A DNA stretch of 64,000 nt, from contig CAVWWD010000008.1 in assembly GCA_963758635.1 (NCBI GenBank), positions 779,215 to 843,214 on the forward strand, given 5' to 3'. The DNA comes from an uncultured Candidatus Rokubacteria bacterium (GTDB taxonomy: Bacteria > Methylomirabilota > Methylomirabilia > Rokubacteriales > CSP1-6). Every line of letters starts with the position of its first letter. Within the stretch, counting starts at the first letter, position 1. The notes under the pieces are model-generated. The model was given only the letters and a program-made list of their open reading frames with translations. It was not told the DNA's origin and searched no databases. Shown here piece by piece: positions 5,130 through 49,525 of the stretch. The translations under genes were made by a program, and so were the position numbers.

Positions 5130-5156
5130 CTCGCACTCTCCCGTGTCTTGGAGTTT

Positions 5157-5257
5157 GCGAGCGCCGTTGCCTGGTGCTGGCCCGGTCCGGTGCTTCCTGT
5201 CCGGTCAGCCGCTTCGAGCCTGGCGGGAGGGCTCCCGTCGCAACGCTCCTCGAAGCC
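5157..5257 (-). promoter_or_regulatory. SAH riboswitch (RF01057-type) in the ahcY leader
   Basis: Minus-strand RNA GGCUUCGAGGAGCGUUGCGACGGGAGCCCUCCCGCCAGGCUCGAAGC...(variable hairpin)...GGCAACGGCGCUCGC. It has P1 (GCUUCGAG/CUCGAAGC), P2 (CGGGAG/CUCCCG), and the conserved GAGGAGCGYUGCGAC, AGGCUCG and AACGGCGCUC blocks with GAGCG/CGCUC pseudoknot potential. It lies 28 nt upstream of the ahcY ATG. Confidence 0.8.
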
Positions 5258-23199: not shown

Positions 23200-24177
23200 G
23201 TGGCCAAGATCATCACGCCGCCTCAGCCGGCCCCCGTCATGGAGATCGCGCGCGAGCTGCTGCCCCCGGGCATGGAGCTCGTCGTGGCCGACCCGAGCAA
23301 GCCGGAGTTCTACGATGCCGTCGGCGACGCCGACTACTACCTGGGCTCGCCCCGCCAGGGCATCGGCAACGAGTTCTTCCGCGCCGCGCCCCGGCTCAAG
23401 CTGGTGCAGCTGACGAGCGCGGGCTACGACCGCGTGGACGTCGAGGCGGCCCGCAAGGCGGGGGTGCCGGTGGCCAACAACGGCGGCGCCAACTCCGTGG
23501 CGGTGGCCGAGCACGCCGTCATGCTGATGCTCGCCGTGCTCAAGCGGCTCGTCCGCAACCACATCGACGTCGTGGCGGGCAAGTGGCGCACCGCGGAGTT
23601 CGCGGCCACGCGCCTGTACGAGGTCGAGGGCAAGCGCCTGGGGATCGTCGGCCTCGGCAACATCGGCAAGAAGGTGGCCCGCCGCGTCCAGGGCTTCGAC
23701 ATGGACGTGCGCTACTACAACGTCCTCCGCCTGACCGAGGACCAGGAGGACGCCCTGGGCGTGCGCTACGCCCTCTTCGCGGAGCTGCTCCGCACGTCGG
23801 ACATCGTCACGCTGCACGTGCCCCTCAACGACGTGACGCGCAAGATGATGTCGACGAAGCAGTTCGCGATGATGAAGCCCACCGCGATCCTCATCAACAC
23901 CTGCCGCGGGCCGGTGGTGGACGAGGATGCCCTCCATCACGCGCTCACGTCGAAGACGATCGCCGCGGCGGGCCTCAACGTCATGGTCGAGGAGCCGCCC
24001 AAGCCGAGCCACCCGCTCTTCTCGCTCCCGAACGTGACCCTCACGCCCCACAGCGCGGGACCCACGTGGGACAACTGGACGAAGGCGTACCGGAACGGCT
24101 TCGACAACATCCAGCGCGTCGAGGACGGCGGGGCACCGCTCTGGGTGGTCCCCGAGCTGCGCAGCCTGCTCGCCTGA
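23200..24177 (+). CDS. D-isomer-specific 2-hydroxyacid dehydrogenase family protein
   Basis: GTG start after AGGAGGAG. 325 aa. NAD motif GIVGLGNIGKKVARR. Also LINTCRGPVVDE and TPHSAG. Confidence 0.9.
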   Translation: MAKIITPPQPAPVMEIARELLPPGMELVVADPSKPEFYDAVGDADYYLGSPRQGIGNEFFRAAPRLKLVQLTSAGYDRVDVEAARKAGVPVANNGGANSVAVAEHAVMLMLAVLKRLVRNHIDVVAGKWRTAEFAATRLYEVEGKRLGIVGLGNIGKKVARRVQGFDMDVRYYNVLRLTEDQEDALGVRYALFAELLRTSDIVTLHVPLNDVTRKMMSTKQFAMMKPTAILINTCRGPVVDEDALHHALTSKTIAAAGLNVMVEEPPKPSHPLFSLPNVTLTPHSAGPTWDNWTKAYRNGFDNIQRVEDGGAPLWVVPELRSLLA

Positions 24178-24256
24178 TGAGCCCCGCGCATCAAGACGAA
24201 TGCCGAGCGGTGGGACTGTAGAGGCCCGTGGCGGTTACCGCATTCTGCGAGGGTCA
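24178..24256 (+). repeat. Z repeat, copy A (~78-nt family)
   Basis: TGAGCCCCGCGCATCAAGACGAATGCCGAGCGGTGGGACTGTAGAGGCCCGTGGCGGTTACCGCATTCTGCGAGGGTCA. It starts immediately after the dehydrogenase stop codon (24175-24177). Confidence 0.8.
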
Positions 24257-24397
24257 TTAGCAGGCTGCTGCCGGCTTCGCGTACAATCGCGGGCGCGTGG
24301 ACCTTCCGGACGGGAAGGTCGCGCGGCGGCGCGAATCGGCTGATCACGGGCGCGGTCCGTCCCCCGCGTGCGACGGGCTGACGCGAAGGAGGATCTC

Positions 24398-24823
24398 ATG
24401 GCAATCCAGACGCAGGAGCAGCGGGTACGGCCGACCACGGGCACCCACGTGGTGCGCGTCCAGCACGAGGGCCTCGTTACCGCCGACGCCGAGCGGTCGA
24501 AGGACTTCTACTGCCGCGTGTTCGGCTGGCAGGTGCTGGACCGCCCGGCGTTCAAGGTCGGGGGGTACTGGATCGGGACGCCGGGCATCTTCCCGCAGAT
24601 CCACATCATCCAGTCCGACCAGGTGCCGCCGGGGCCGGGCGCGCCGATCCTCCCGATCGTCCGGCACACCGCCTTCGAGGTGGCCGACTACGCCGCGATG
24701 AAGGCCACGCTCGAGCGGGAAGGCATCCCATACGTCGAGAACACCCAGCCCGGCGGACGCGTGCAGATGCTCTGCAACGATCCCGACGGCAACACGCTGG
24801 AGTTCCAGCCCGCCACCGTCTGA
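24398..24823 (+). CDS. VOC (glyoxalase/bleomycin-resistance/dioxygenase) family protein
   Basis: ATG 24398 after AAGGAGG. VQHEGLVTADAERSKDFYCRVFGW...HTAFEVADYAAMKATLEREGIPY...CNDPDGNTLEF. Confidence 0.8.
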   Translation: MAIQTQEQRVRPTTGTHVVRVQHEGLVTADAERSKDFYCRVFGWQVLDRPAFKVGGYWIGTPGIFPQIHIIQSDQVPPGPGAPILPIVRHTAFEVADYAAMKATLEREGIPYVENTQPGGRVQMLCNDPDGNTLEFQPATV

Positions 24824-24840
24824 TCCCGGACTCGACGCCC

Positions 24841-27210
24841 ATGTCCTTCCTCGAGTCGCGGAGCCACTCCGCGCGCGAGGGCTTCGGCAAGCCCGTGCTG
24901 CGCAAGGAGGACGGGCGCCTCCTCACGGGCGGGGGCGCGTACAGCGACGACCTCAACGTGCCCGGCCAGGCCTACGCGTGCTTCGTGCGGTCGCCGCACG
25001 CGCACGCGCGCATCGGGCGCATCGACACCGCCGCCGCCCTCGCCGTTGTCGGCGTGATCGCGGTCCTGACCGGGCGGGACGCCGTCGCGGACGGCATGAA
25101 GCCGGTCACGCACAGCCCGATGCCCGGCAATCCCTACGAAGAGATCGTCCGCGACCGCGACGTGGCCTTCGTCCCGCCTCACCCGCCGATGCCCGCGGAT
25201 CGCGTGCGCTTCGCCGGTGGCGTGGTCGCCATGGTGGTGGCGGAAACGCCGGCGGCGGCGCGTGACGGCGCCGAGCGCGTCGACGTGGACTGGACACCGC
25301 TTCCCGCGGTGACGGGAAGCCTCGCCGCGGCGGGCGCGGAGGCGCCGGTGCTCTACGACGAGAGCGCGTCGAACGTGTGCGTGGACGTCGAGGCGGGCGA
25401 CCGCGAGGCCGTCGACCGCGCGTTCGCCCGCGCCGCTCACGTGGTGCGCCTGGACACGTGGGTCCAGCGCGTCACCGGCGTGCCGATGGAGCCGCGCGCC
25501 GCGGTGGGGGAGTGGGACGGCCAGAGCCAGCGCTACACCGTGCACGCCGGCGCGGGCGGGCTCGGCCGGACGCGCACGGGCGTCGCCGGCGCCCTCGGTG
25601 TGGCCGAGAGCGAGGTGCGGGTCACCGCGGGCGACGTGGGCGGCAACTTCGGCACGCGCAACAGCTGCTACCCGGAGTTCGTGCTAGTCGCGTGGGCGGC
25701 CCGGCGCCTCGGCCGGCCCGTGAAGTGGACGGCCGACCGCAACGAGGCGTTTCTCGCCGACTACCAGGGCCGGGACCTCGCCGTTCAGGCCGAGCTGGCG
25801 CTGGACGCCGCGGGCAACTTCCTGGGCCTGCGCGGCGCGAACACCAGCAACGTCGGCGCGCACGCCGTCTCCTTCCACCCGCTGAACAAGGGCATGGCCC
25901 TCACGGGCACCGTGTATCGCATCCCGGCGGTGGCGGTGCGCGGCCGCGCCGTGGCCACCAACACCTCGCCGACCACGCCGTACCGGAGCGCGGGACGACC
26001 CGAGGTCATGTTCGTGATGGAGCGGCTGATCGACCTGGCCGCGCGGCGACACGGCTTCGACCGGCTCGAGGTCCGACGCCGGAACCTGGTGCCGGCGAGC
26101 GCGATGCCGTACCGGAACGCGATGGGCACGGTCTACGACAGCGGCGACTACGTGGCCGCGCTGGACCGGGCCGCGGAGCTGGCCGACTGGTCCGGCTTCG
26201 AGGCGCGCCGCGCCGAGGCGCGCCGGCGGGGCGCGCGCCGCGGCATCGGCGTGGCCAGCTACATCGAGCTGAACACCGGTTTTCCGCGGGAGCGCGCGCA
26301 CCTCACGGTGCGCCCGGAGGGCCGGGTGGACCTCGTCCTGGGCACGCTCTCGTCCGGGCAGGGACATGCCACGAGCTTCGGCCAGCTCGTCGTGGAGTGG
26401 CTCGGCGTGGACCTCGCGCAGGTGAACCTCGTCACCGGCGACACCGACGTCACGGTGGTGGGCGGCGGCGCGCACTCGGCGCGGGCCCTCCGGCTCGCCG
26501 CGGTCGTGATGGCCAAGGCCTCGGACCAGATCGTGGACAAGGGCCGCCGGATCGCCGCGTGGCTCCTCGAGGCGGCGCCCGGCGACGTCGAGTTCGCGGC
26601 CCGCCGGTTCACGGTGAAGGGCACCGACCGGGGCGTGGACCTCTTCGAGGCCGCGGCGGCGGCGCTGCGGGCCGACGCGCCCCCGGACTGCCGCGGCCCG
26701 CTCGACGGCACCAGCGACGAGACCATGCCGCAGCCGTCGTTCCCCTACGGCGCCGCGGTGTGCGAGGTCGAGGTCGACCCCGAGACCGGACACGTGGAGG
26801 TGGCGCGCTACACCACCGTGGACGATTGCGGCCGCGCCGTGAACCCCATGATCCTGCACGGCCAGACGCACGGCGGCATCGCGCAGGGCGTGGGCCAGGC
26901 CCTCTGGGAGTCGTGCGCGTACGACGCGGCCACCGGCCAGCTCCTGTCGTCCACGATGATGGACTACACGATGCCGCGCGCCGACATGCTGCCGATGTTC
27001 ACGACGGAGATCAGCGAGGTCCCCTCGACCGCGCACCCCCTCGGGCTGCGCGGGGGCGGGGAGGGCGGCACGACGCCGGCGCTCGGCGCGGTGGTGAACG
27101 CCGTGGTTGACGCGCTGGCCGACCTCGGCGTGGAGCACATCGAGATGCCCGTCACCGCCGAGCGCGTGTGGCAGGCGATCCAGGACGCCCGGCGACGGTC
27201 GGGCTCGTGA
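24841..27210 (+). CDS. xanthine dehydrogenase family protein, molybdopterin-binding (large) subunit
   Basis: 789 aa, CoxL/aldehyde-oxidase architecture: GKPVLRKEDGRLLTGGGAYSDD, GGNFGTR, PYRSAGRPE, GGIAQGVGQALWE, GLRGGGEGGT. No adjacent FeS or FAD subunit genes. Confidence 0.9.
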   Translation: MSFLESRSHSAREGFGKPVLRKEDGRLLTGGGAYSDDLNVPGQAYACFVRSPHAHARIGRIDTAAALAVVGVIAVLTGRDAVADGMKPVTHSPMPGNPYEEIVRDRDVAFVPPHPPMPADRVRFAGGVVAMVVAETPAAARDGAERVDVDWTPLPAVTGSLAAAGAEAPVLYDESASNVCVDVEAGDREAVDRAFARAAHVVRLDTWVQRVTGVPMEPRAAVGEWDGQSQRYTVHAGAGGLGRTRTGVAGALGVAESEVRVTAGDVGGNFGTRNSCYPEFVLVAWAARRLGRPVKWTADRNEAFLADYQGRDLAVQAELALDAAGNFLGLRGANTSNVGAHAVSFHPLNKGMALTGTVYRIPAVAVRGRAVATNTSPTTPYRSAGRPEVMFVMERLIDLAARRHGFDRLEVRRRNLVPASAMPYRNAMGTVYDSGDYVAALDRAAELADWSGFEARRAEARRRGARRGIGVASYIELNTGFPRERAHLTVRPEGRVDLVLGTLSSGQGHATSFGQLVVEWLGVDLAQVNLVTGDTDVTVVGGGAHSARALRLAAVVMAKASDQIVDKGRRIAAWLLEAAPGDVEFAARRFTVKGTDRGVDLFEAAAAALRADAPPDCRGPLDGTSDETMPQPSFPYGAAVCEVEVDPETGHVEVARYTTVDDCGRAVNPMILHGQTHGGIAQGVGQALWESCAYDAATGQLLSSTMMDYTMPRADMLPMFTTEISEVPSTAHPLGLRGGGEGGTTPALGAVVNAVVDALADLGVEHIEMPVTAERVWQAIQDARRRSGS

Positions 27211-27283
27211 GCCTCGCGCATCAGACAATGCCGAGCGGTGGGACTATAGGGGCCCGTGGCGTTACCGTATTCTGCGAGGGTCA
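27208..27283 (+). repeat. Z repeat, copy B
   Basis: TGAGCCTCGCGCATCAGACAATGCCGAGCGGTGGGACTATAGGGGCCCGTGGCGTTACCGTATTCTGCGAGGGTCA. Its first three bases are the stop codon of the XDH-family gene. Confidence 0.8.
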
Positions 27284-27322
27284 CTAGAGCCCGGACGACC
27301 GGGCAGCGACGGAGGACGCGAG

Positions 27323-27857
27323 ATGCCGGGAAAGGTCCGCCGCATCGTGACCGGCGTGAACGAGCGCGGGCGCTCGTACATCGTCTCCGACCGCGCGTTT
27401 CCCGCCGGCGACGTCGCCCCCGGCCAGGCGGTGCGCGTCGGCCTCTGGGCCACGGGGGCGGCGCCGGCCTCGAACGAGGGCACGGACGACCCCGTGCCGG
27501 ACGGGGTGATCCTGAAGACGCCGCCGGCGGCGCGGGGCGGCAGCGTGATCCGGATCACCGACATCGCCCCCGACAGCCAGCGGGCGTACGACGCCGACGA
27601 GCTGCGCCGGCGCGGCTGCAAGACGACGCCCGACCGCTCGGCGCGCCACCCCGGCTTCCACGCCACCGACACCGTGGACTACGCGATCTGCCTGGAGGGA
27701 GAGGTGTGGGCGGTGCTGGACGAGGCCGAGACGCTCATGCGTCCGGGCGACGTGCTGATCCAGCGCGGCACCCATCACGCGTGGTCGAATCGCACCGATC
27801 GCGTCGCCCGGATGGCTCTTCATCCTGATCGACGCCGAGCCGCTCCCCAACCACTGA
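27323..27857 (+). CDS. cupin domain protein, one apparent +1 frameshift near 27818
   Basis: ATG after GGAGGA. DTVDYAICLEGEVWAVLDEAETLMRPGDVLIQRGTHHAWSNRTD. After ...ARMA the expected ending (F/L)ILIDAEPLPNH-stop (TGA 27855-27857) is one base out of frame. Confidence 0.65.
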
Positions 27858-29187: not shown

Positions 29188-29370
29188 TCAGGCGCGCTCG
29201 GGCGGGGCGGCGGGGAGGCACTCAGGGGTCGTCGGGACCACGCCGCACGCGTGCGCTGCCCCGCTGGGACTGGGCTCCATCCGGGCGCGCGGGGTCCGAT
29301 GACCGTTGGAGGGGAAGGGCCGCCGCGACCCCTGGTGCCTCCCCACCGCCCACCCGGCGACCGGCTGATG
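29188..29370 (-). repeat. X element, left arm of large inverted repeat
   Basis: About 93% identical (hand alignment) to the reverse complement of 29597-29776. Internally palindromic: GGGGAGGCACTCAGGGG (29212-) pairs with CCCCTGGTGCCTCCCC (29328-29343). Contains CGCACGCGTGCG. Confidence 0.85.
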
Positions 29371-29412
29371 CCGCCGGCGCGGCTAACCAGCGTACCCAAG
29401 TCAGCGCGACAC

Positions 29413-29508
29413 CCGGGTCAGGTCTTGAATTGCGACATCGCCTTCCGGGCGGCGCGAAGTGATCGGCCGATGCCCCGGCGAGGTGCTGCATTTCAAGACC
29501 TGACCCGG
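29413..29508. repeat. Y palindrome, copy 1 (long-loop form)
   Basis: CCGGGTCAGGTCTTGAA (29413-29429) pairs perfectly with TTCAAGACCTGACCCGG (29492-29508), with extra partial pairing (TGCGACA/TGCTGCA). The loop is about 60 nt. Confidence 0.85.
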
Positions 29509-29596
29509 ATGTTGCCGGAGGAGACTCGCGGCCGTGCCCGTCGACGGATCGTCGGAGCAAGACGCTCCTCAGTGGATCGTGGTGGCACGTGAGCGA

Positions 29597-29776
29597 CATC
29601 AGCGGGTTGCCGGGTGGGCGGTGGGGAGGCACCAGGGGTCGAGGGGCCCTTCCCCTCCAACGGTCATCGGACCCCGCGCGCCCGGATGGAGCCCAGTTCC
29701 AGCGGGGCAGCGCACGCGTGCGGCGTGGCCCCGCGGCCCCTGGTGCCTCCCCGCCGCCCTGCCCGAGCGCGCCTGA
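29597..29776 (+). repeat. X element, right arm of large inverted repeat
   Basis: CATCAGCGGGTTGCCGGGTGGGCGGTGGGGAGGCACCAGGGG...CCCCTGGTGCCTCCCCGCCGCCCTGCCCGAGCGCGCCTGA. Perfect 16-bp closing stem. It ends 29 nt before the lhr stop codon. Confidence 0.85.
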
Positions 29777-46087: not shown

Positions 46088-47167
46088 ATGAACGCGACGA
46101 GAGCGCTGGCGGCACTGCTGAGCGGGGTCCTCCTGCTGTCCGCTGCCGGGTCCCCCGCCACGGCGGCCGGGCTCAAGGTGGGAGTCGTGCACATCGGATC
46201 CGTCGCGGACGGCGGATACAACCAGGCCCACGCCGAGGGCATCCAGGCCATGAAGCGCAACGTGCCGGGCGTGGAGGTCATCACGGTCGAGAACGTCCCC
46301 GAGGGCGCGGACGCCGAGCGCGTGATGGAGAACATGATCAAGCAGGGGGCGACCCTGATCTTCGCGGCCAGCTTCGGCTACCTCGAGCCCGCGCTGCGTG
46401 TCGCCGCCCGGTACCCGGAGGTGAAGTTCGTCCACCCCGGCGGCTACAAGCGCGCGCCCAACCTGACGACGTACTGGGCGAGCACGCCCGAGGCCTTCTA
46501 CCTGATGGGCGTGGCCGCGGGCAAGACGACGAAGACGAACAAGCTGGGGTACGTGGTGGCGCTGCCCATCAGCTTCTTCCTCGCCAACGTGAACGCGTTC
46601 CAGCTCGGCGCGCGCTCGGTGAACCCGAAGGCCGAGACGCGCGTCGTCTTCACGGGCGGATTCATGGACCCCGCCAAGGAAGCGGCCGCGGCGAGCGCGC
46701 TCCTGGACCAGGGCGTGGACGTGCTCGGGGTCATCGTGGACTCGCCGGTCACCGTGGTCCAGACCGCGGAGAAGCGCGGCGCGTACTCGGTGGGGTTCCA
46801 CTACGTCGGCGCCCAGAAGTTCGCGCCGAAGGGATGGGTCAGCGGCGTCGCGTTCACGTGGGGCAACCTCTACACGACGTTCGCGACGCAGGTCATGGAA
46901 GGCCGCTTCAAGAGCGAGAACATCCTGGGCTCGCTCGCCGACGACTTCCTGACCATCGCGCCGTTCGGCCCCGCCGTGCCCCCGGACGCGGCGCAGCTCG
47001 TCGCCACCGCCCGCCAGGAGCTCGTGTCCGGCAAGCGCCAGCCCTTCGTGGGACCGCTCAAGGACAACCGCGGCGCCGAGCGGGTGAAGGCGGGCGAGAC
47101 CTTCCCGCTCACCGACCTCCGCAAGATGGACTGGCTCGTCGAGGGCGTGGTCGGCCAGCCGCGCTGA
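46088..47167 (+). CDS. BMP family ABC transporter substrate-binding protein
   Basis: ATG 46088 after AAGGAG, with a signal peptide. KVGVVHIGSVADGGYNQAHAEGI, FAASFGY, KLGYVVALPI. Confidence 0.85.
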   Translation: MNATRALAALLSGVLLLSAAGSPATAAGLKVGVVHIGSVADGGYNQAHAEGIQAMKRNVPGVEVITVENVPEGADAERVMENMIKQGATLIFAASFGYLEPALRVAARYPEVKFVHPGGYKRAPNLTTYWASTPEAFYLMGVAAGKTTKTNKLGYVVALPISFFLANVNAFQLGARSVNPKAETRVVFTGGFMDPAKEAAAASALLDQGVDVLGVIVDSPVTVVQTAEKRGAYSVGFHYVGAQKFAPKGWVSGVAFTWGNLYTTFATQVMEGRFKSENILGSLADDFLTIAPFGPAVPPDAAQLVATARQELVSGKRQPFVGPLKDNRGAERVKAGETFPLTDLRKMDWLVEGVVGQPR

Positions 47168-47175
47168 CGGCCGGG

Positions 47176-48393
47176 CTATCCGGCGGGCGAGCCCCGCGCA
47201 TCAGACCCAGGCCGAGCGGTGGGATTGTAGAGGCCCGTGTCGGTTAGCGTGCCCTGCGAGGGTCTTTGGCCCGCGGCGCCCGGGCGGTCGAAGCGGAGGC
47301 GGCGCCACAGCTCGGGCCGGGCGTCGCGGCCGAGGGCGAGACGGGCGAGCACGTCACCGATCATCGGCGAGAGCGCGAAGCCGTGGCCGGAGAAGCCCGC
47401 GGCGACGAAGAGCCCGTCGATGCCGGGAACGGGCCCCAGCACCGGAACCTCGTCGGGGGTGAACGCCTCGAGCCCGGCCCAGCCCCGGGCGAACGCGACG
47501 CCCGCGACGGACGGGTACACCTCCCGAGCGGTCGCCAGGCTCGAGTCCACGCTGTCCGGGATCAGCTCCCAGCCGTTGGCCGACAGGTTCACGACGCGCG
47601 CGGGCCAGCCGCCGCCGATCAGGTACGCGCCGGAGTCGAGCTGCTTGAAGCTCAGCTTCCGGCCGAAGGCGCCCAGCACCGGCTGGAGCGCGGCGCGCGC
47701 CGTCGCCGTGAGGAGCATCTGGAGCGGGCGCGTCTCCAGGCGGAGTCCGATCTCGGCGCTCGCCAGCAGCCCGGCAGTCCAGACGCCGGCGGCCACGATG
47801 GCGACATCGCACCCCTGGACGGCGCCGTCGCTGCGCCGGATGCCGGTGAGACGCCCGCCGGTGACGACGAGGGCGTCCGCGCCCACGCCTTCCTCGATGC
47901 GTGCCCGCTCGCGCAGGGCCGCGATGCCGAACGCGCGCACGGTCCCCATCGCGTCGGCCTGGCCGTCGATCGGCGAGTAGACGCCGCCGAGGCATGCCGG
48001 CGTCACGCCGGGCGCGAGCTGGCGGGCCGAGGGGGCGTCCACGACCTCGAGGGTGACGCCATCCTTCGCCTGCTCCGCGACCCACCCCGGCGCCTCTCGC
48101 CACGCGTCGTCGTCCAGCGCCACGCGCAGCCCCCCGCCCCTCCGGTACTCGGTCGGGTGTCCCAGCTCCCGCGAGAGGTCCGGCCATCGGTCGAGGCTGG
48201 CGAGGGCCAGGGCGCGCTCGGCGGGGTCACGGCCCATCACGCGTACGCCGGCCGCGCTGGCGCCCGATGCGGCGGCGCCGATCTGTTCGCGCTCGAGCAC
48301 GGTGACCTGCACGCTCGGGTCCTCACGGCGGATGTGCCAGGCCGTGCTGAGGCCCATCAGCCCGCCGCCCACGATGACCACGGAGATCGGCAC
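47176..48393 (-). CDS. FAD-dependent oxidoreductase (DAO/glycine-oxidase-like)
   Basis: GTG 48393 after GAGGGGA. Dinucleotide fold ISVVIVGGGLMGLSTAW. Also AAGFSGHGFALSP. The last ~30 codons are the antisense of Z copy C, so the native C-terminus is uncertain. Confidence 0.8.
   Translation of the reverse strand: MPISVVIVGGGLMGLSTAWHIRREDPSVQVTVLEREQIGAAASGASAAGVRVMGRDPAERALALASLDRWPDLSRELGHPTEYRRGGGLRVALDDDAWREAPGWVAEQAKDGVTLEVVDAPSARQLAPGVTPACLGGVYSPIDGQADAMGTVRAFGIAALRERARIEEGVGADALVVTGGRLTGIRRSDGAVQGCDVAIVAAGVWTAGLLASAEIGLRLETRPLQMLLTATARAALQPVLGAFGRKLSFKQLDSGAYLIGGGWPARVVNLSANGWELIPDSVDSSLATAREVYPSVAGVAFARGWAGLEAFTPDEVPVLGPVPGIDGLFVAAGFSGHGFALSPMIGDVLARLALGRDARPELWRRLRFDRPGAAGQRPSQGTLTDTGLYNPTARPGSDARGSPAG
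47188..47265 (+). repeat. Z repeat, copy C
   Basis: CGAGCCCCGCGCATCAGACCCAGGCCGAGCGGTGGGATTGTAGAGGCCCGTGTCGGTTAGCGTGCCCTGCGAGGGTCT. It lies 21 nt after the SBP stop, and the convergent flavoprotein ORF reads through it antisense. Confidence 0.75.
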
Positions 48394-48520
48394 CCGAGTC
48401 CCCTCGCCCCCGTATAGCACACCGAGCCTGGGCTGGTCCCGCCGCGCGTGGAATAATGCGGCCAACGGCCGAGGGGCGACCGGGAAGGGGTCCCGCCGTC
48501 CGCCGGTCCGGGAGGCGACC

Positions 48521-49525
48521 ATGGACAGACGCCACGGGCTCGGCCGGCGGGAGTTCCTGCGGGGGATGCGCGCGCTGGGCGTGGCGGCGGTCCCCGTCCT
48601 GGCGACGACGATCTCAACGTCCCCGGCTCGGTCGAGCGGCGGGGCAGGAGGATCTTCAATGAAGACGGCGTACGATCCGGCGGCGAAGTTCGAGCTGAAG
48701 GTGAGCGAGGTCGAGTTCCGGCGTGCGGTGAGCGGGCGCATGCTGATGGCCCGGATCTACCAGCCGCAGGGCGTGGGACCGTTCCCCGTGATCCTCGACC
48801 TCCACGGCGGCGCCTGGAACGGAAAGGACCGCACGGCGAACGAGCCCATGGACCGGGCGGTGGCGGCGAGCGGCGTGCTCGTGGTGGCCATCGACCTCAC
48901 GCTCGCCCCGGAGGCGCCGTATCCCGCGTCCGTCCAGGACGGCAACTTCGGGGTGCGCTGGCTCAAGTCACGGGCGGCCGAGTGGAACGGCGACCCGGGC
49001 GGGCTGGGGCTCATCGGCAGCTCGAGCGGCGGTCACGTGGCCCAGCTCCTCGCCATGCGCCCGCGCGACGCGCGCTACAACGCGCTGTCGGTGCCCGCGC
49101 ATCCCGCGGTGGACGCGACGGTGGCATACGTCGCCACGCGGTCGCCGATCAGCGACACGCAGGCGCGCTTCCAGCAGGCGGAGAAGATGAGCCGCGAGGG
49201 GATGATCAAGAGCAACCGGACGTACTTCCACCCGTGGGAGAGCATCGTCGAGGCCAACCCGCAGGGCATCCTCGACCGCCGCGAGCCGGTGTCGCTGCCG
49301 CCGCTCCTGATCATGCAGGGGGCCCTCGACGACAACGTGCTGCCCGCCGTGCAGGAGAAGTTCGCCGCGTCCTACCGCGCCGCGGGCGGGCAGTGCGACC
49401 TCACGATCTTCGAAGGGTGCGAGCACGAGTGGGTGGCGAAGCCGGGTCTCCAGACCGATCGCGCCCACGAGATGGTGAAGGCCTTCGTCGCGCGGAACCT
49501 GGCCGCGGCGCGGCGCGCGTCGTAA
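48521..49525 (+). CDS. alpha/beta hydrolase (fold-3 esterase-like) with Tat signal
   Basis: ATG after GGGAGG. Tat motif GRREFLRG, oxyanion LHGGAWNG, nucleophile elbow GSSSGGH. Confidence 0.8.
   Translation: MDRRHGLGRREFLRGMRALGVAAVPVLATTISTSPARSSGGAGGSSMKTAYDPAAKFELKVSEVEFRRAVSGRMLMARIYQPQGVGPFPVILDLHGGAWNGKDRTANEPMDRAVAASGVLVVAIDLTLAPEAPYPASVQDGNFGVRWLKSRAAEWNGDPGGLGLIGSSSGGHVAQLLAMRPRDARYNALSVPAHPAVDATVAYVATRSPISDTQARFQQAEKMSREGMIKSNRTYFHPWESIVEANPQGILDRREPVSLPPLLIMQGALDDNVLPAVQEKFAASYRAAGGQCDLTIFEGCEHEWVAKPGLQTDRAHEMVKAFVARNLAAARRAS

Follow-up and report, generated by a model that had tools for sequence, protein, structure and literature searches.

The MITEs mobilized by IS630/Tc1-mariner-type transposases include RUP of Streptococcus pneumoniae (IS630-Spn1) and the eukaryotic Stowaway-type elements. 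MITEs of the IS5 family that target CTAG/YTAR make a 4-bp duplication. IS630/Tc1-mariner elements insert only at TA, which they duplicate (PMC2170065), with IS630 itself favoring the TA of CTAG (PMC2170065, referring to Tenzen and Ohtsubo 1991). The mycobacterial interspersed repetitive units (MIRUs) contain short ORFs that overlap the stop and the start of their neighbors and occur in about 40-50 copies. The Correia elements (CREE/NEMIS) of Neisseria have a length of 104-157 bp and contain IHF sites as well as outward promoters (PMC3184786).

The repeat family described here, named Z, is a non-coding jumping element, a bacterial MITE, and represents a new family of this well-known element type. 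It was encountered in the window, the whole 64,000-nucleotide stretch analyzed, which belongs to the MAG of an uncultured soil member of the Rokubacteria/Methylomirabilota (6.2 Mb, 71.5% GC, 87% complete). Z shares with the IS630/Tc1-mariner MITEs its small size, the lack of coding capacity, inverted repeats, insertion at and duplication of TA, a preference for CTAG, and many dispersed copies that vary between strains. It differs from them in that the search for a partner IS sharing its ends found none, in bearing no resemblance to any of them in sequence, and in its restriction to a single genus-level lineage of Rokubacteria; with its 80 nt it is also shorter than most, RUP measuring 107 bp (PMC3184786). 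Like the MIRUs (40-100 bp), Z resides in a high-GC host, lies in operons between stop and start, and has imperfect inverted repeats, short flanking direct repeats and head-to-tail arrays of varying copy number (PMC3184786). Unlike them, it has tandem stops at its edge, 171 copies and a TA duplication seen in one clean strain comparison, and the likeness is behavioral only. Z also resembles the Correia elements, as a TA-flanked MITE with inverted-repeat ends and copies in the hundreds near genes, but a search of 24100-27400, which spans the first two window copies, yielded no promoter-like site, and the host phylum is different.

A search of the whole MAG at E<1e-5 recovered 171 copies on both strands (82 plus, 89 minus), with a median identity to the consensus of 92%. 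The sequence-only reading, based on three copies in the window, had staked its proposal on further copies in the genome, and these exist in number. The core measures 76-80 nt in 143 of the 146 full copies, which leaves no room for a gene and lies below the limit of about 400 bp for MITEs. The unit comprises 80 nt, namely a 78-nt core and one terminal base on each side. With its flanks the consensus reads CTAG-TGAGCC...GGGTCA-TTAG, which is symmetric as C-TA-R-TGA-S-CC. The terminal inverted repeats are imperfect (R-TGA-S-CC-Y-CGC; 5' R-TGAGCCCCGCG... and ...TGCGAGGGTCA-Y 3'): the 5' end, (C)TAG-TGAGCCCCGCG, matches the 3' end as read on the opposite strand, (C)TAA-TGACCCTCGCA, giving the symmetric C-TA-R-TGA-S-CC-Y-CGC. 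The flanks read C-TA...TA-G, with TA on both sides in the consensus, and the outer bases are C in 79% (position L-4) and G in 84% of copies, in keeping with the CTAG preference of the IS630 type. Arrays are head-to-tail, their units sharing one 4-nt junction, and probably formed by local tandem amplification together with nested insertion into the flanking CTAG. Four dispersed dimers share diagnostic variants and might each have moved as a unit, but the dimer on contig C5 was instead built in place by nested insertion.

The three copies in the window share 81-91% identity, and a 29-nt core pattern matches these three sites only (0.00 expected, 100 shuffles). Their positions and common plus-strand orientation were as first read, the identities then judged by eye (about 88% for A and B, about 80% for A and C) are close to the measured 72/79 and 66/79 (B and C, 63/78), and the distances from the preceding plus-strand stops are indeed 0, -3 and +21. 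Copy A has a 79-nt core (TGAGCC...GGGTCA) at 24178..24256 on the plus strand, the element proper under the TA model being 24177-24257, and is absent from the related strain L134/L135. It abuts the gene for a D-2-hydroxyacid dehydrogenase (23200..24177, plus strand), whose stop is the TGA at 24175-24177; the TGA of the copy itself follows in frame. The left flank is CTGA (24174..24177), where the related strain has TAG, and the right flank is TTAG (24257..24260), made up of the last base of the element (T), the duplicated TA and the G of the target. The empty site in L134/L135 reads GCC-TAG-CAG, in which TAG is the stop of the gene; since the base ahead of this TAG in L134 is C, the T of the right flank is not target sequence. 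Copy B (76-nt core, 27208..27283, plus strand) is absent from strain L135, in which the end of the gene reads GAC TGA GCCCGG. In the window, the first triplet of the copy, TGA at 27208-27210, serves as the stop codon of the gene for a molybdopterin-binding dehydrogenase large subunit (24841..27210, plus strand). Its left flank CTCG (27204..27207) is a decayed CTAG, of which TCG is now the last sense codon, and its right flank is CTAG (27284..27287). Copy C has a 78-nt core with decayed ends (CGAGCC...GGGTCT) at 47188..47265 on the plus strand and a right flank TTGG (47266-47269); the same copy, its ends decayed in the same way, is present in the NCBI MAG GCA_040511415.1. It starts 20 nt after the stop (47165-47167) of a Bmp/PnrA-like substrate-binding protein gene (46088..47167, plus strand). 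The description of all copies as lying directly 3' of plus-strand genes needs amendment here: copy C sits between convergent genes, and a DAO-family FAD oxidoreductase gene on the minus strand (47176..48741) runs across it. With both inward stops lost at that end, about 30 of the C-terminal codons of this gene come from the reverse strand of the copy.

Ten Z copies are covered by DNA of related strains (97-99% identical), and five of them are missing there: window copies A and B, C5:642581-642663, C5:633592-633673 and unit 1 of the dimer at 224.6 kb of C5. Z was thus moving recently in this soil population of Rokubacteria. Dispersed copies in large number, and sites filled in one strain and empty in its relatives, are both features of MITEs. 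Since half of the covered sites vary between strains in this way, the copies are dispensable. The one fully clean insertion event (n=1) is in the C5 dimer, where the empty allele reads GCTCG-C-TA-G-TGAGCCTC and the filled allele GCTCG-C-TA-[T CGAGCC...GCGTCA T]-TA-G-TGAGCCTC. The difference is 80 nt plus a duplication of TA within CTAG with zero mismatches, and duplications of 3 bp or 4 bp do not fit. Together with the TA on both sides of the consensus, this pair of alleles establishes that Z targets the TA of CTAG and leaves it duplicated, as IS630/Tc1-mariner elements do; copy A and the C5 sites are consistent with this. Each empty site is either CTAG or a single step removed from it. Three of the other four empty alleles do not have the expected TA (CCAG, CGAG and CTGAG), the flank-to-flank correlation beyond the consensus is weak across all copies, and the assembly contains indel errors, such as a frameshift in mlaF.

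A different mobilizer, a transposase of the IS5, IS701 or IS1182 type with a YTAR/CTAG target and a 4-bp or 3-bp duplication, is improbable. Left flanks of the form CTAR and right flanks of the form YTAG would suit it, as would the same unusual 4-mer on each side of some copies (CTGG...CTGG, CTAC...CTAC) and the three DDE_Tnp_1 genes of the genome, and Z is like MITEPsy1, an IS5-family MITE of Pseudomonas syringae, in its CTAG-type target and intergenic location (PMC3189936). In the clean event, however, the new copy has a left 4-mer CTAT and a right 4-mer TTAG within a former CTAG, and only a 2-bp TA duplication, which sets Z apart from IS5-family MITEs, explains it without extra mutations. 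At L-4 the base is C in 79% of copies whereas at R1 it is T in 66%, so the two flanks are not copies of each other. Copy A has C before TAG when empty and T when filled, a 4-bp YTAR duplication was not observed, and the genome has no DDE_Tnp_4 gene.

The joint explanation that Z is a MITE inserting at the TA of CTAG, mobilized in trans by an IS630/Tc1-mariner-type transposase and placed at stop codons as a result, is very probably correct. The transposase would be a DDE enzyme encoded outside this assembly. In the 87%-complete MAG no autonomous IS with Z ends was found. Many accepted MITE families are likewise without a known partner. The Pfam search of the genome gave two DDE_3 and three DDE_Tnp_1 matches and none to DDE_Tnp_4 or Y1_Tnp. 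The two DDE_3 genes are IS630-like and located on contig C7, with termini that do not match those of Z, and inverted-repeat scans of these loci gave nothing matching Z. An alignment of Z with the ends of the C7 IS630-like copy (GCCGAGCAGTTGG against GCCGAGCGGTGGG) looked suggestive by eye, but with p = 0.078 and a location within transposase coding sequence it was rejected. Six solo matches to the Z terminal repeats lie outside the known copies, none beside a transposase, and self-BLAST for repeats of at least 300 bp returned only IS3-like and IS110-like elements and paralogous genes. The same searches bear on a REP/BIME-type origin with spread by a RAYT (IS200-like Y1 transposase), which the sequence-only reading had offered in the same breath as a MITE. 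Z is a short, GC-rich intergenic repeat after genes and is sometimes clustered, as expected for such elements, but Y1_Tnp (PF01797) lacks any match here and gives matches in six control genomes; Z is 80 nt long with inverted repeats and a target duplication rather than a palindrome of 20-40 nt, its arrays run head-to-tail instead of alternating, and its orientation is unrelated to GC skew. A REP/BIME identity is therefore extremely improbable, and of the double label only the MITE half stands, carried by the 171 copies, the inverted repeats, the TA/CTAG flanks and the strain polymorphism. GC skew is too weak here to define replichores, and a replication-strand bias of Z was likewise discarded.

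Between co-directional genes, Z is antisense in 68 cases and sense in 34; the uniform orientation in the window is thus a small-sample effect. This 2:1 bias relative to genes is one of the points in favor of Z as a functional RNA kept at gene ends by selection (a 3'-UTR stabilizer, processing site or terminator), along with the ability of the ends and of two inner segments to pair (84-90% of cells) and with common polymorphisms that keep the pairing through G-U on the plus strand. The pairing nevertheless equals that of shuffled controls: 84.2% against 83.9% of cells are paired in the structure drawn here, and 89.8% against 89.4% in the structure first proposed. Fold z-scores range from -1.7 to +1.2, as for shuffled sequence. 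The G-U change reported for the inner helix is real (34 G-U, 30 G-C) but one-sided, with no compensatory partner. No covariation was detected in the RNAalifold fold (-4.3 kcal/mol) or in either of the two hand-built structures, a comparison of low power with copies about 92% identical to the consensus. Rfam gave no match, and the absence of a U tract, already remarked on in the window copies, extends to any terminator-like site. One-third of the copies between co-directional genes have the other orientation, and half of the strain-compared sites are polymorphic. With both orientations in use, a stabilizer role is not upheld, and a selected RNA of any of these kinds is highly improbable. A tRNA-derived origin was considered since GCCGAGCGGT resembles the D-arm of a class II tRNA; it was dropped, ARAGORN finding nothing in Z.

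The placement of Z is strongly non-random with respect to stop codons (gene positions and start codons are from an ad hoc gene caller made for this analysis), which agrees with the enrichment that the sequence-only reading expected from three copies. Of 148 Z ends that face the 3' end of a gene, 53 are at distance 0 and 24 at distance -3; both ends of the element show this behavior, and 73 of 131 copies abut a stop codon at one end or both. TAG and TAA account for 39 of the 53 stops at distance 0, compared with 27% of stops in the whole genome (p = 2e-12). In the 24 cases at -3 the gene ends in the TGA of Z itself, preceded most often by TCG (12), then by TCA (6), CAA (2), CAG (2), TAC (1) and TTG (1), all of them one step from TAG/TAA. 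An orthologous copy on a metagenome contig (83% identical) has TGA as flank triplet where the copy in this genome has CAA. The genome contains 1,310 CTAG tetramers where 15,984 would be expected (~8%; 12-fold depleted), CTAG and the other YTAR tetramers being present at only 7-8% of the expected frequency, and stop codons make up 32% of the CTAGs outside gene interiors. With few tolerable CTAG sites, a large share of them TAG stops, Z would land on stops. The terminal purine on each inward strand rebuilds TAG or TAA for the adjacent gene (TA + R), and as the next triplet of the inverted repeat is TGA in frame, either end provides two tandem stops. Thereafter the flanking TAR often decays (TAG to TCG; TAA to TCA or CAA), leaving the TGA of Z as the working stop, while insertions elsewhere in genes were presumably removed by selection. 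Z would accordingly be found at stop codons because CTAG is rare and often part of a TAG stop, its ends read TAR-TGA in frame, the flanking stop decays and other insertions are presumably purged. This in-frame double stop distinguishes the ends of Z from those of RUP and the Stowaway-type MITEs.

A two-way interplay between Z and CTAG, in which excision footprints immunize sites or MITEs that seek the TA in CTAG help to drive the depletion of CTAG, is a tentative and rather doubtful extension. It rests on the empty alleles that have no TA and on the decayed CTCG, the commonest left flank of Z (28/146). At least two MITE families that seek the TA in CTAG are counted in this genome. If this reading were true, the TAR-TGA double stop would be a selected 'safe landing' design by which genes swap their own stop for that of Z, a swap already made by at least 24 genes here.

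It is unlikely that Z, besides being mobile, is retained as an operon spacer that provides tandem stops upstream and a ribosome-binding site downstream, as proposed for MIRUs. Z makes up the whole stop-to-start spacer in 17 of 102 co-directional contexts, and in nine antisense copies the next ATG or GTG comes right after the 4-nt flank, TAG-ATG junctions elsewhere numbering 2 of 805. At mlaF-mlaD the ancestral Shine-Dalgarno sequence was shifted by ~130 nt, and the start after Z aligns with the start of the orthologues; GAGG, 5-fold enriched upstream of starts, is present in the outward-reading 3' end of Z. In the commoner antisense orientation, however, the downstream gene is faced by the poor GGGGCTCA end and not by the GAGGG end; GGGG shows hardly any enrichment ahead of starts (1.5-fold), and the T7 variant that would make GAGG is not enriched among bridging copies. 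The start codons, moreover, are those of the gene caller used here. A role of Z as Shine-Dalgarno donor is weakly supported.

Among 250 other genomes of the phylum, a single diverged copy of Z was all that was present. A pattern scan of species-representative genomes gave no match, a plasmid collection had none either, and a scan of JGI metagenomes gave one contig. Z is restricted to a single genus-level lineage of Rokubacteria, and the initial impression that it belongs to no described family held in the phylum, species-representative and plasmid collections.

Knowledge of how MITEs work is unchanged by Z. Annotation has to mask about 170 intergenic sites and to reckon with at least 24 genes whose stop comes from the transposon and with some proteins that carry Z-encoded tails, as does the DAO-family enzyme. 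As a mobile element, Z has been active recently in an uncultured soil phylum, and its copies could serve as strain markers, since half of the compared sites differ between strains with 97-99% identical DNA. The family shows clearly why high-GC genomes accumulate TA/CTAG-seeking elements at their stop codons, and how stop codons may turn over: the built-in second stop of Z allows the original stop to decay.

Three copies of the roughly 80-nt Z repeat lie in the window, with cores (the unit between the flanking tetramers) at 24178-24256 (copy A), 27208-27283 (copy B) and 47188-47265 (copy C), where the sequence-only reading had placed them. Pairwise core identities of 72/79, 66/79 and 63/78 bear out the similarity it described, and a 29-nt core pattern matches exactly these three sites and nothing in 100 shuffles. 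Copies A and B carry ends of the TGAGCC...GGGTCA type, and the right end of copy C is decayed. The distances from preceding plus-strand stops are likewise correct: a TGA stop lies directly 5' of copy A, the TGA of ORF 24841..27210 is the first triplet of copy B, and copy C starts 20 nt past a stop. Copy C is located between convergent genes and has lost both inward stops at its right end (TCT TTGG), so the DAO-family oxidoreductase gene at 47176..48741 (-) reads on through all of the element and gains about 30 residues. Copy C occurs, with the same decay, in the NCBI MAG GCA_040511415.1 and is thus an older, shared insertion.

A profile made from the three window copies was searched against the whole source genome (6.17 Mb in 12 contigs, 71.5% GC, completeness rating 87%), in which the window occupies C8:779215-843214. 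At E<1e-5 it detected 171 copies (82 plus, 89 minus), 162 of them nearly full-length, amounting to about 0.23% of the sequence; the genome-wide count called for by the earlier reading thus showed a sizeable family. The copies match the consensus at a median identity of 92%, and the core measures 78 nt in 88 of 146 full copies. The consensus including flanks is CTAG-TGAGCCCCGCGCATCAGACTAATGCCGAGCGGTGGGACTGTAGAGGCCCGTGGCGGTTACCGTATTCTGCGAGGGTCA-TTAG, and its ends are symmetric when read inward from both sides (C-TA-R-TGA-S-CC-Y-CGC). The outer flank bases are C in 79% and G in 84% of copies; within the flank TA, T is kept in 77% (left) and 64% (right), and A in 64% (left) and 73% (right). Density is uneven: contig C5 holds 5.6 copies per 100 kb (45 versus 22 expected), and Z is depleted on C2, C4, C10 and C11, with 0-1 copies on C2 and C11 versus 4 and 7 expected. 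The GC content of C2 and C11 is slightly lower (70.4-70.6%); these contigs may have been mis-binned or may form a separate replicon.

Related-strain contigs were located via exact-protein matches (ENA ERZ25039565 and ERZ25039541, JGI 3300038383, NCBI GCA_040511415.1) and are 97-99% identical to the source genome over most aligned DNA, lower in some stretches. Jointly they cover ten Z sites. Five are filled (window copy C, C5:224598-224679, C5:232755-232830, C5:234580-234661 and C5:644333-644415) and five lack the element in at least one relative (window copies A and B, C5:224679-224760, C5:633592-633673 and C5:642581-642663). The cleanest event is a nested insertion into the CTAG flanking an older Z copy: the empty allele GCGCTCG-C-TA-G-TGAGCCTC... 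corresponds to the filled allele GCGCTCG-C-TA-[T-CGAGCC...GCGTCA-T]-TA-G-TGAGCCTC..., a gain of 82 nt made up of an 80-nt element and a TA duplication. A 3-bp or 4-bp duplication would require extra mutations. At the copy A site a relative reads CTCGCC-TAG-CAG..., the TAG terminating the same dehydrogenase gene, and the window reads CTCGCC-TGA-[core]-T-TAG-CAG...; the base preceding the right-hand TAG therefore belongs to the element, not the target. Transposons of the IS630/Tc1-mariner group insert at TA only and duplicate it (PMC2170065), and a passage of that paper citing Tenzen and Ohtsubo 1991 gives TA within CTAG as the preferred target of IS630 itself. We infer that Z was mobilised by an enzyme of this type. 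In three of four further empty alleles, CCAG, CGAG and CTGAG stand in place of the expected CTAG and lack its TA; among decayed Z flanks, CTCG is the most frequent. Fast CTAG decay in this genome, excision footprints and survival of immune sites are all possible explanations. In a strain without copy A (contig L134, 1182-1375), an unrelated insert, palindromic and about 190 nt long (AAAAGGGCCCATCTGC...GCATCTGGACCCTTTT), lies 12 nt downstream of the same CTAG, and the copy A site looks like a hotspot for insertions.

Placement relative to genes was assessed with 5,269 gene calls from a codon-usage caller purpose-written for this analysis, measuring from each Z edge to the gene 3' end facing it. 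The enrichment at stop codons anticipated from the window holds genome-wide: the distance is 0 in 53 and -3 in 24 of 148 cases, shares that indel errors in the assembly probably lower, and both Z ends show the pattern. A stop adjoins at least one side in 73 of 131 assessable copies, and both sides in 4. Only 6 copies lie between divergent genes versus 23 between convergent ones, even though the spacers of divergent genes add up to twice the DNA. TAG or TAA accounts for 39 of the 53 stops at distance 0, versus 27% of stops genome-wide (p = 2e-12), and genes at distance -3 end in the TGA of Z itself. The triplets ahead of this TGA (TCG 12, TCA 6, CAA 2, CAG 2, TAC, TTG) are all one step from TAG or TAA; for an orthologous copy on a JGI metagenome contig of about 83% identity, the flank triplet is TGA there and CAA in the source genome. 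Each Z end carries TA+R followed in frame by TGA, a double stop whose outer member is free to decay. CTAG is rare (1,310 sites versus 15,984 expected from base composition), and CTAG, CTAA, TTAG and TTAA all stand at 7-8% of that expectation; TCGA and GATC exceed it about 3-fold. The rarity of CTAG, the double stop and the freedom of the outer stop to decay jointly explain the stop-codon placement. Since 32% of the CTAGs that lie neither in a gene interior nor near Z are stop codons, target choice accounts for much of the placement; the rest plausibly reflects selection against insertion in promoters and genes.

The shared orientation of the window copies relative to genes does not extend to the genome, where 68 copies are antisense and 34 sense between co-directional genes (p = 0.001), a bias unrelated to GC skew. 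Eleven adjacent head-to-tail pairs have gaps of -5 to +3 nt between profile-match ends, and in the pairs inspected a single shared 4-nt junction separates the cores. The units of a four-unit array at C5:331662-331985 are near-identical, which makes the array a local amplification, and four dispersed two-unit arrays have the same diagnostic variants. Z forms the entire stop-to-start spacer in 17 of 102 co-directional contexts. One copy sits in the mlaF-mlaD operon (C3:335541); in relatives the spacer there is 1-6 nt long and holds no element, and the start codon directly past Z aligns with that of the orthologues. GAGG, a core enriched 5-fold upstream of starts, is part of the outward-reading 3' end; the commoner orientation faces the downstream gene with the other end, GGGGCTCA, so a ribosome-binding role is a weak possibility. 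The mlaF gene (C3:335300-335540) has an apparent one-base frameshift (extra C) versus all orthologues, and a molybdopterin dehydrogenase gene on the related ENA contig L135 (10444-12816) is broken up into several ORFs; long-read indel errors probably account for both.

Of the 'REP/MITE-like' label given earlier, the MITE part (a small non-coding element without its own transposase) stands, given a TA/CTAG-targeting, recently active family, and the REP part falls: a Y1 transposase of the RAYT/IS200 kind was not found in the source genome, and a REP/RAYT element was rejected on this ground. The proposed 3'-UTR stabiliser also finds no support. Rfam gave no match to Z at gathering or E-value thresholds, single-sequence folds were no better than shuffles on either strand (z -1.7 to +1.2), and the alignment fold was weak, without covariation. 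The ends and inner helices can pair as described, but pairable cells are no more frequent than in column-shuffled controls (89.8% versus 89.4% for the earlier structure, 84.2% versus 83.9% for ours) and compensatory changes are absent from the inner helices, in a test of low power because the copies are young. A structured RNA was rejected on present evidence. No promoter-like or terminator-like sites were detected in 24100-27400, which spans copies A and B. Elsewhere in the window, a SAH (S-adenosylhomocysteine) riboswitch lies at 5152-5257 (-) (RF01057, 60.8 bits versus a gathering score of 37).

No IS with ends matching Z was found in the source genome. Two IS630-family (DDE_3) transposase genes occur at C7:235058-236119 and C7:247791-248902, neither with Z-like ends; the second lies between C-TA...TA-G flanks, with the ends CAGTGGG/CAGCGAGG. 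At C3:727081, C3:1022708 and C9:211071 the Z 5' end (CGAGCCCCGCGCATCAG) is matched alone and leads into different sequence. The first of these matches continues into a different internal hairpin, terminates in GGGTCA, and may represent a second small family on the same ends. Another MITE-like family (about 220 bp) has two copies in the window at 29188-29776, just behind the stops of convergent genes, with ends that differ from Z by eye; this interval is about 640 nt longer on L135.

A search of 250 other genomes of the phylum gave a match in only one (G003), a single diverged copy at 1499-1582 of its locus L092, with no further Z-like copy outside the lineage. In this G003 copy the ends are those of Z, the interior is a near-perfect hairpin (CCAACGGTGGGACG-ATAC-GCGTCCCATGGCGTTGG), and it lies 12 nt past the stop of one gene and 3 nt ahead of the ATG of the next. 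The Z pattern was not found in the species-representative genome collection or in the plasmid collection, and in JGI metagenomes it occurred in one contig. By this distribution the family is a lineage-specific, recent expansion, in agreement with the earlier impression that Z belongs to no described family. Z is a genuine MITE family that targets TA/CTAG and was active recently; it is undescribed but of a well-known kind, and in behaviour it comes closest to IS630-type MITEs and to MIRUs.
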